Shown here in pieces: positions 51,601 through 54,600 of a DNA stretch of 64,000 nt. Source of the DNA: Escherichia coli. Lineage in GTDB: Bacteria > Pseudomonadota > Gammaproteobacteria > Enterobacterales > Enterobacteriaceae. The DNA is taken from the NCBI RefSeq assembly GCF_051903065.1, contig NZ_CP178438.1, one strand, 5' to 3'. How positions within the stretch are numbered: the first letter of the stretch is position 1; every line of letters begins with the position of its first letter. Made by a program: the position numbers.

Positions 51601-54600
51601 ATGCGCGATATCTCCACTAGTTCGCAGAAAATCGCCGATATTATCAGCGTAATTGACGGCATTGCCTTCCAGACCAATATTCTGGCTTTGAACGCGGCGG
51701 TTGAAGCAGCGCGTGCGGGTGAGCAAGGACGTGGTTTTGCGGTGGTTGCGGGAGAAGTGCGTAATCTGGCCCAGCGTAGCGCCCAGGCGGCTCGTGAAAT
51801 TAAAAGCCTGATTGAAGACTCGGTGGGGAAAGTGGATGTTGGCTCTACGCTGGTCGAAAGCGCCGGGGAAACAATGGCGGAGATTGTCAGTGCTGTGACC
51901 CGCGTGACGGACATTATGGGCGAAATAGCTTCTGCTTCTGATGAGCAGAGCCGTGGTATCGATCAGGTTGGCTTAGCGGTTGCTGAGATGGACCGGGTAA
52001 CTCAACAGAACGCTGCGCTGGTGGAAGAGTCTGCCGCTGCTGCCGCCGCGCTGGAAGAGCAGGCCAGTCGCCTGACCGAAGCTGTGGCAGTGTTCCGGAT
52101 TCAGCAACAGCAGCAACAGCAGCGTGAAACATCGGCTGTGGTAAAAACCGTGACGCCAGCTACGCCGCGTAAAATGGCAGTGGCAGATAGCGGGGAGAAC
52201 TGGGAAACGTTTTAATCGCCATAAAAATGCCCGATAAGCAAAATGTTATCGGGCATAGGGAGTTTAATCTTTACGCGGGTCGTTGATCGGCTGACGAACC
52301 AGGAAGATGTACGCCAGTGCTCCCGCTGCGGTGACGCAACCGCAAATGATTAGTGCCAGACGAAATGAGTGGGTGGTATCAACAATAAAACCAGTAATGA
52401 TCGGCGCGAAAGAGGCGCAGATGAAGCTGGCAAAGTTCTGGATACTGCCCACCGACGCAGTCATGCGAGAAGCAACTGCGACGTGGATCAAGCCCCAGCA
52501 GGATGTTCCGGCAAAGTGAATACAGAACAGTGCCATGCCAATCAGCAGAACCGCCATCATGGATGTTGTCGCTTGTGGTACTATCAGCGTAAAGGCGGCA
52601 GAACAGAACATCCCGGCAATAATGCAGATCTTACGGCTTTTAATTGGAGCCATTCCCCCTTTGACCAGCCAGTCAGTAACGTAACCGTTGACCAGCATCC
52701 CGGCAGCCCCAAACAGGAAAGGGATAGCCGCCATCAACCCTGTGCTTTTTAAATCCAGGTTATAGGCTGTTTGCAGGTAACCAGGAAGCCAGGCCAGATA
52801 CAGCCACGCAGTGTAGTTGATGCCACTGAATCCGAGCATCATTCCCCACATTGTGCGGTTACGGAACAGGCTGCGCCATTCGGCAAAACTGAGTGGATCT
52901 CGGCGGGCATTGACGCTACCTGCATTGAGATAAGCTTGTTCAACGGCAGTCAGTTCTACGTGCTCGCGGTTGCGATAGAGCATATACCAGCCGATGGCGA
53001 GAAAAATCCCCAGTACACCAATGGTAATAAACATCCCGCGCCAGCCCATCACCAGCATCATCGCCGCCAGAATCGGTGGGCTTACGGCAACGCCAATGGT
53101 AGAAGCTGCGTTGAAGAAGCCCATCGGGCGTCCGCGCTCTTTGATGTTGAACCAGTCGTTAATGACTTTTACACCGCATGGGTTCATCGGCGCTTCACCA
53201 ATCCCCATACCGATACGCACCAACACGAACTGCGTAAAGCTGTGCACCATGCCAGACATGGCCTGGAACAGTGACCAGAAGAACATCCCCAGTCCCAGCA
53301 TCAGGCGTGGGCCTTTACGATCCAATAGTGGGCCGCAAGGAAGTTGCGCAATGCCGTAAGCGAGTGAAAACACGGAGAGCAAAGCGCCGATTTCGGTGGC
53401 ACTTAATCCCAATTCTTCACGAATCGTTAAATTTGCTACCGACAGCGAACTGCGGTCGAGATAATTGATTACCGCCGCAAAAAATAATAACAACATGGCG
53501 GTGGTTTGAATGCGTTTAATTCGGGTACTGCGTTGAACTAATCCATCTGGTGGCACGGGAATATCTGCCGACGAAGATGGAGTAAATGAAGAACGCGGAT
53601 CGAGGGTGATATTTTCTTTTTCCACGCCGGACTCCTGTATTTATAATTTTAATTGTTTACGTAATTGTGCATTACGCAAGGTTGACATTAACGGCAGGTT
53701 AAAGTTTTAGGACTTTACTACCGCTCACAAAAACATTTTTAGTCGACTGATTGTGAGCATAGGTAAGCGGGAATTTCCCGGTATTTATCTTTTGATAAAA
53801 CCGTGCACCCGCTAATAGTTTGCTGTTTTTAATCCGTACTTAATGAGCATAACGCGTGTTCTCATTAATGGATCGAATCATTGATTGTTTCGCTGAATTC
53901 AAATGGTTACGGAGCGCAAGGGTGGCATCAAGGTCACTGCGGCAAATCAGAGCGCTGAGAATGGTCATATGCTCATCGACGGCAATGATATTGCGCTGTT
54001 TAAGATCGCTTTCGTCCCATTGATAGTGAAAATGAAAGATGACTGAGATGATCTCAAGCGATTGATCAAAAAAGATATTGTCGGCAGCTGAAAGCAGTAA
54101 GGAGTGAAAATCTCTGTCAAGTTGCGAGAACATGCGAAAGCTATTGCCGATGTTGTCACGCAGTAGCCGATGACGTTCGAGCATTGTTTTCGCCTGCAGC
54201 CAGCGGGGATCATGATCAGGCAGGTTGAGAAAGTGCTGAAGTGAATGTGTTTCGAGCATTTCGCGTAGCTCAAACAGCTGCTCGGCGTAGGATTGATCGA
54301 ATTGCTTCATGCTCCACTGGCCGCGCTTTTCGCTTTGAATAAGATTATAACGGCCGAATTTTAAAAGATATTCTCTTACAACCACCGGGCTGACACCCGC
54401 GGCCCGAGCCAGTTGCAGTTCAGAAAAAGTTTCCCCAGGGCGTAACTGACGCTGGTTTATCATCGTGAAAAAAGCCTGCTCAAACACTTTGTTTTGTTCA
54501 CTCATTGAAGCGGTAGTACAGGCGAAACCGTCATCATGGTCAGGTTTACGCGCAATAACATAGTCGTTTCCAACCTGCGTTAAGACGCCGCATTCGCGTA

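Follow-up and report, generated by a model that had tools for sequence, protein, structure and literature searches.

The seven-glutamine run of the Escherichia coli Tsr tether is a two-unit in-frame 9-bp repeat and the commonest form of the gene

The run of seven glutamines near the C-terminus of the serine chemoreceptor Tsr, encoded in the stretch of Escherichia coli DNA analysed here (64,000 nucleotides of contig NZ_CP178438.1, assembly GCF_051903065.1, hereafter the window), is ordinary: it is the normal and commonest form of tsr in E. coli, and it is the K-12 reference that is the unusual one. The run behaves as a small in-frame variable-number tandem repeat (VNTR) that changes by whole units of 9 bp. 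We consider it highly probable that the two-unit allele of the window has the ancestral length, that substitutions in an older seven-residue slot produced the run of seven glutamines (Q7), that gains and losses by slippage followed and that K-12 and the B strains carry a contracted form.

The tsr gene and its glutamine run

The open reading frame at 50551–52215 (+ strand) encodes 554 amino acids plus a stop codon and is tsr, the gene for the serine chemoreceptor (MCP-I), by all the tests that we applied. Its product scored 1225.5 bits against the NCBIfam profile NF011615 (Tsr/MCP-I, PRK15041), which has a cutoff of 947, with a full-length alignment of residues 1–554 on profile positions 1–554; the second-best family was Tar, with 752.5 bits, under its cutoff of 900. 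The protein is 99% identical to K-12 Tsr, the gene adjoins lgoT-lgoR-lgoD in the same order as in K-12 and so lies at the orthologous chromosomal position, and the annotation is tsr in all 5,385 of the matching genomes described below. The C-terminus is NWETF (52198–52212, + strand), which fits the xWxxF pentapeptide motif (PMC7390727) at the extreme end of the protein and represents the docking site of CheR and CheB (PMC7390727, PMC8609364). The length of 554 residues and the NWETF ending, both proposed when the sequence was first read, were confirmed.

Within this frame the run comprises Gln518–Gln524 and occupies 52102–52122 (+ strand), with the codons CAG CAA CAG CAG CAA CAG CAG preceded by ATT (52099–52101) and followed by CGT (52123–52125). 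The sequence-only reading had recognised the in-frame I-Q7-R sequence correctly and had placed the run at 52107–52127, 5 nt away from its real coordinates. Tandem Repeats Finder (TRF) reported a repeat at 52102–52123 with a period of 9, the unit CAGCAACAG, 2.4 copies, 100% matches and a score of 44, and the tract can be written as (CAGCAACAG)x2 plus CAG, each unit encoding three glutamines. It is a perfect head-to-tail repeat with a unit that is a multiple of 3 bp, as expected of an in-frame coding VNTR. With a glutamine content of 7.8% in Tsr, about 9e-6 runs of at least seven glutamines would be expected by chance and none was found among 200,000 shuffles of the protein, and therefore the run is no accident of composition.

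The pure-glutamine alleles that were read directly contain 4, 7, 10 or 13 glutamines (Q4, Q7, Q10 and Q13), that is (CAGCAACAG)n plus CAG with n = 1–4, and at most ~1% of genomes could have other run lengths. The trinucleotide unit suggested earlier was not borne out, and the label of a trinucleotide (CAG) expansion fails, since a period of 3 describes the run with only 78% matches against 100% for a period of 9, the alleles differ by 9-bp steps and the allele in question is modal and of ancestral length. We also rejected a phase-variable contingency locus, since the unit is a multiple of 3, every allele stays in frame with NWETF intact and there are only 1–4 units. In the open-access literature that we searched, the run was not found among the described E. 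coli VNTR/MLVA loci and no paper describing the glutamine-run polymorphism of tsr was found, although any alignment of publicly available genomes shows it.

The run sits at the junction between the helical bundle and the presumably flexible tether that presents NWETF to CheR and CheB, at the receptor-proximal end of the tether, and its assignment to this region, already made from the sequence, was upheld. In published work R516 is the tethering point and I517 the first residue of the tether (PMC10561060), and the chains of Tsr in the PDB stop at R516 (8C5V) or Q520 (1QU7). Counted from I517, the tether of the window extends over Ile517–Glu549 (52099–52197, + strand) and has 33 residues, compared with 30 in K-12, which lies within the expectation of ~30–35 residues for this linker. 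An AF2 model built on an alignment of 36 sequences was poor as a whole (mean pLDDT 55, pTM 0.30), with pLDDT below 50 from residue 515; it continued a helix through residue 529, also with pLDDT below 50, and is too unreliable to judge the helicity of the run. The tether of Tar was reportedly found to be disordered by Bartelli and Hazelbauer in 2011, and receptor linkers are said to have been truncated by Li and Hazelbauer in 2006, both as cited in later papers.

Allele frequencies, ancestral length and recurrent change

A search of 5,426 complete E. coli genomes with a 181-bp query spanning the run gave matches in 5,385, and this last number is the denominator for all shares given here. Alleles were counted by megablast with short junction-specific queries, for which the other allele cannot supply an exact seed of 28 nt. 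The Q7 form (554 aa) was found in 4,050 genomes (~75%) at a coverage of at least 80%, a count that takes in variants with a single mismatch such as QQQQQHQ, and Q4 (551 aa) was found in 1,208 (22%). Sixty-five records had two partial match places, the pattern expected of Q10 or longer tracts; three of these are subtracted as Q13, leaving ~62 genomes (1.2%) with Q10 (557 aa), of which at least 57 span 190 bp. Q13 (560 aa) was found in 3 genomes (under 0.1%) by a full match to a synthetic Q13 query, and the remainder of ~60 genomes (1%) has other or unassigned forms, among them the interrupted runs QQEQQRQ in TW10598 and N50 and QQQQQHQ in APEC O2-211. Direct reading of the sequences showed Q10 in 21KM1392, HS and LF82 and Q13 in RM14723.

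Bounds from separate queries agree with these counts: at least 3,960 records at an identity of at least 95% cannot be Q4, and 13–14 of 60 rows, sampled systematically, were Q4. Likewise, in systematic samples of rows, judged by record spans, about three-quarters had the length of the window and about one-quarter that of K-12. The collection of genomes is biased, in that some pathogen clones are heavily sampled and many laboratory derivatives of K-12 and BL21 raise the count of Q4 (the B strains, like K-12, have the one-unit allele), and the natural frequency of Q4 is thus probably below 22%. Q7 is the modal Tsr allele of E. coli.

In K-12 MG1655 (b4355, NP_418775.1) Tsr has 551 residues and the run reads ATT CAG CAA CAG CAG CGT, so that the K-12 and window alleles differ in the run by exactly one 9-bp unit, and the sequence-only reading was right in giving K-12 a shorter receptor. 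The same reading had named a run of seven in K-12 and most strains as the observation that would speak against its proposal; most strains do have it, and K-12, with four, does not.

The tails of Tsr from other species were collected with a degenerate DNA pattern for AVAVFRIQQ, which returned 60 species-representative loci. Four of these were chance matches outside tsr (Bacteroidales, a Gammaproteobacteria MAG and a frame artefact in Shimwellia) and were left out, so that 56 tails of Enterobacteriaceae were usable. The pattern missed E. albertii, E. fergusonii, S. enterica subsp. enterica and S. bongori, and the closest outgroups used were E. whittamii, Escherichia sp. E1V33 and a divergent GTDB representative named as E. 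coli. In Enterobacter, Citrobacter, Leclercia, Silvania and Salmonella enterica subsp. arizonae and diarizonae the tail reads I-QQEQQ[R/K]A-R[E/D], with seven residues in the slot that the glutamine run fills in the window, and in other Escherichia lineages the slot is QQ[T/A]QQRQ. The tether, counted from I517 up to the last residue ahead of the pentapeptide, has 33 residues in 21 of 31 full-length outgroup orthologues, one per species, with a range of 30–35; many outgroup Tsr orthologues are exactly 554 residues long, and the NF011615 profile itself has 554 positions. Among the E. coli alleles the tether is 30 residues long in K-12 (Q4), 33 in the window (Q7), 36 with Q10 and 39 with Q13. 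The seven-residue slot and the 33-residue tether of the outgroups argue that the length seen in the window is ancestral and that Q4 of K-12 is a contraction, with the polarity for the K-12 clade itself resting on parsimony.

A neighbour-joining tree was built from 21 tsr alleles after masking of the repeat region; run length was scattered over this gene tree, Q4 occurring on at least four backgrounds and Q10 on at least three. The Q4 alleles of IHE3034, ZJ3920 and 2022E04-002 differ from Q7 alleles of their clade by 1–2 nt and from the Q4 allele of K-12 by 28 nt, and further Q4 backgrounds are those of APEC E19025, PCN033 and ABW_S38. The Q10 backgrounds are those of LF82, 21KM1392 and HS, and the Q13 allele is nearest to a Q10. 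Two flanking SNP sites lie close to the repeat on the + strand: position 52083, 19 nt upstream, is T in the window and A in K-12 and B2 alleles, and position 52129, 7 nt downstream, is A in the window and K-12 and G in alleles of the CFT073 and IHE3034 type, a difference of Thr/Ala at residue 527 (window numbering). G at 52129 was found in 71 Q4 genomes. Q4 and Q7 were each found with all three flank haplotypes (A..A, A..G and T..A at 52083..52129), and to explain this by one origin and subsequent recombination, breakpoints within these few bases would be required.

The strain EcN_Sk (GCF_044094645.1) carries a Q7 allele that is 0 nt from K-12 tsr, and over 4,112 bp the two genomes differ only by an additional 9-bp unit in EcN_Sk. 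Database searches found no other genome that matches this haplotype at 100%. Judged from the sequences, EcN_Sk looks like a very recent gain from Q4 to Q7, unless it is an assembly error. Taken together, the gene tree, the haplotypes of the flanking SNPs and EcN_Sk point to recurrent, independent changes of length, that is to homoplasy.

Proposed origin and competing explanations

In light of these data, we propose that a seven-residue slot was ancestral, present as QQEQQ[R/K]A in other Enterobacteriaceae and apparently kept as QQEQQRQ in a few E. coli. Point substitutions would then have replaced the other residues of the slot by glutamine in most E. coli, GAG becoming CAG and CGC becoming CAG, perhaps via CAT or CAC, and the same substitutions would have made the perfect 9-bp direct repeat. 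Once formed, the repeat would gain and lose whole units, most likely by slipped-strand mispairing at replication, a mechanism that we infer from the structure of the repeat only: the direct repeats are 12 bp long with an offset of 9 bp, and whole-unit steps between them fit such mispairing. The outcome would be the alleles of 551, 554, 557 and 560 residues (Q4, Q7, Q10 and Q13), with K-12 and the B strains representing the contraction to one unit.

The competing explanation that fares best, although we judge it improbable, is that the series of lengths (30, 33, 36 and 39 residues) is held by selection and acts as an evolutionary tuning knob, adjusting the reach of CheR and CheB, and serine adaptation, to lifestyle. 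The length of 33 residues is conserved across genera despite the divergence of the tether sequence, so length appears to be constrained, and length changes have recurred, with Q4 at ~22% on several backgrounds, but laboratory strains inflate this frequency, a single allele is dominant and the longer ones are rare (~1.2%). Tether length measurably alters adaptation behaviour in Tar (PMC10561060), although the smallest experimental step there is 5 residues and was made in Tar rather than Tsr, and with only 1–4 units the rate of slippage expected is low relative to that of true contingency loci.

The explanation put forward from the sequence alone, that the window strain gained 9 bp (as a triplet-repeat expansion) on an ancestral Q4 run like that of K-12 and so acquired a longer tether, is now very improbable and largely refuted. 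The window form is found in ~75% of complete genomes and on all sampled tsr backgrounds, compared with ~22% for the K-12 form; the outgroups and the divergent E. coli alleles have the seven-residue slot and the 33-residue tether; Q4 is polyphyletic and nested within Q7 clades; and the window's own tsr clade (O157 Z1835 and 23CRST027) is Q7. Against these observations stand the exact 9-bp deficit of K-12 and the fact that gains do occur at the run, as indicated by the existence of Q10 and Q13 and by the apparent change from Q4 to Q7 in EcN_Sk on a K-12-identical haplotype of 4.1 kb. Tandem duplication of a one-unit allele would give a perfect two-unit repeat, and the perfect (CAGCAACAG)x2 could in principle have come from duplication of a Q4 intermediate.

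Errors of sequencing or assembly in a low-complexity stretch have a negligible chance of accounting for the length differences: repeats are error-prone in some technologies and only one assembly has the EcN_Sk allele, but clean in-frame 9-bp steps occur in thousands of independent complete genomes, the tract of 21–39 bp is far shorter than a read and both forms are present in independent PDB constructs (Q7 in 3ZX6 and Q4 in 6S1K).

Tether length and comparison with known systems

That tether length matters for adaptation, as the sequence-only reading stated, agrees with published data, in which it affects the kinetics of adaptation (PMC10561060). The fitted peak of CheR concentration shifted in that study by 0.128 ± 0.048 nm per residue over Tar tethers of 22, 29, 34 and 46 residues, the tether of K-12 Tsr was given as 30 residues against 34 in Tar, and it was argued that the shorter Tsr tether suits its shorter mean distance to the methylation sites. 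Extrapolating from Tar, one unit of three residues should shift the CheR peak by ~0.38 nm (~0.4 nm) on a scale of ~10 nm. The natural step of three residues is smaller than the smallest engineered step in Tar, and on this estimate the effect of one unit is probably small or near-neutral. A functional tuning role of tether length is possible, if unsupported. We offer only tentatively, as a rather unlikely proposition, that a recurrently mutating 9-bp repeat sets the Tsr tether at 30, 33, 36 or 39 residues and perhaps measurably changes the reach of CheR and CheB and the kinetics of serine adaptation.

If that proposition were true, the receptor of K-12, with the shortest tether (30 residues), would under-represent the typical E. 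coli tether (33 residues, near the 34 of Tar), and the published argument that matches a shorter-than-Tar tether of Tsr to the geometry of the methylation sites would hold only for K-12-like strains. In ~75% of E. coli the Tsr tether has 33 residues, almost the length of that in Tar. Almost all quantitative studies of how Tsr adapts rely on the K-12 allele, in which the tether is three residues under both the species norm and the 33-residue length conserved in the Enterobacteriaceae, and it is modestly useful for researchers in chemotaxis that the often-quoted K-12 tether of 30 residues is atypical for E. coli. The natural series of 30, 33, 36 and 39 residues could serve as ready-made test material for models of adaptation by tethered enzymes.

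The window allele is already present in RefSeq (WP_000919571.1) and in a PDB construct. WP_000919571.1, the Tsr of O157:H7 Z1835 and of strain 23CRST027, has a C-terminal tail identical to that of the window, including Q7 and with no differences, and 23CRST027 and the window have identical tsr DNA. In PDB 3ZX6, an engineered HAMP-Tsr chimera, the Tsr part has exactly the Q7 tail of the window; PDB 6S1K has the K-12 tail (Q4). K-12 Tsr comes from the same gene, which occupies the same place in the chromosome, upstream of lgoT; its protein is 99% identical, with the same order of domains and the same pentapeptide and tether sequence, but it has 551 residues, Q4 and a tether of 30 residues instead of 554, Q7 and 33. 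Two more substitutions in the tail, A538T and E546G (K-12 numbering), separate it from the window, and btsT lies directly upstream of tsr in K-12, whereas the window has the hpa cluster there.

As a repeat, the tsr run resembles the in-frame coding VNTRs that change by slippage, in its perfect repeat, its allelic series of whole units (1–4), its recurrent gains and losses and its preserved frame. It differs from them in having very few units of 9 bp, and its instability is therefore presumably low. As a tether, it has its nearest counterparts in the engineered Tar variants of 22, 29, 34 and 46 residues (PMC10561060) and in the linker truncations attributed to Li and Hazelbauer, in which the length in residues from the body of the receptor to NWETF was varied, as it is among the natural alleles. 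Those variants were made in Tar by steps of 5–12 residues near the pentapeptide end, whereas the steps between the natural alleles of Tsr are of three residues, consist of glutamine only and lie at the receptor-proximal end.

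Divergent alleles and variation near the tether start

The tsr allele of N50, a CSF isolate (L003 among the loci compared around tsr, 1525-3186), is about 12% diverged from every other sampled E. coli allele (204/1,640 sites). It encodes a Tsr of 553 aa in which the run reads QQEQQRQ, an outgroup-like form, and this suggests that the gene was imported from another Escherichia lineage. In Escherichia whittamii (L046), the run consists of nine residues, QQTQQQQQQ, encoded by CAG CAG ACG CAA CAG CAG CAA CAG CAG, and exceeds the seven-residue ancestral slot by two residues; changes in run length in other Escherichia are therefore not all 9-bp steps. 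Directly before I517, the residue from which we count the tether, FDAARGOS_1281 (L008) and Ec-U14-1 (L079) carry R516L, a CGG to CTG change at the codon corresponding to window 52096-52098. In PMC10561060, the flexible arm is taken to be tethered at R516.

Variable genes and comparison with the nearest genome

Gene content at about 7.8-36 kb of the window was taken from the annotation of a near-identical genome, and comprises variable genes in the style of an 'immigration control' region: a type I restriction-modification system (R, S, M), a further restriction endonuclease, a BrnT/BrnA toxin-antitoxin, symE, a 5.2-kb inverse autotransporter IatD, a pentapeptide-repeat protein and an Rpn-family nuclease. 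The window hpaG (48426-49721, minus strand) is an intact ORF, whereas the annotation of the nearest genome, 23CRST027, lists hpaG as a pseudogene interrupted by an internal stop. Besides this stop, the two differ at only 3 positions from about 15.4 kb to 64 kb. The initial 15.4 kb of the window is out of register with 23CRST027, so the two differ by an indel, and the matching region of 23CRST027, used as the reference, contains a frameshifted IS1.

Gene order around tsr and a K-12-like stretch

The surroundings of tsr are mosaic among E. coli (window 49987-50433 and 52264-53625; L001-L008 and L070-L084). Upstream, the hpa cluster with hpaR is found in the window, REL606, HS and PCN033, btsT lies directly next to tsr in K-12, CFT073 and IHE3034, APEC O2-211 and TW10598 have a MurR/RpiR regulator, and O157 Z1835 has a hypothetical gene. 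Downstream, the window and K-12 carry lgoT-lgoR-lgoD, and B2 strains and ABW_S38 a TRAP transporter operon. Plasmid-typed records account for 3 of the 5,386 tsr 3'-end matches in the E. coli genome search.

EcN_Sk (L076, NZ_CP172017.1, 1-4121) carries a 4.1-kb btsT-tsr-lgoT-lgoR stretch equal to that of K-12 MG1655 plus one 9-bp unit, and no other genome among the 5,426 searched matched it at 100%. The K-12-identical stretch, with Q4, is also present in the type strain DSM 30083 and in MS7163.
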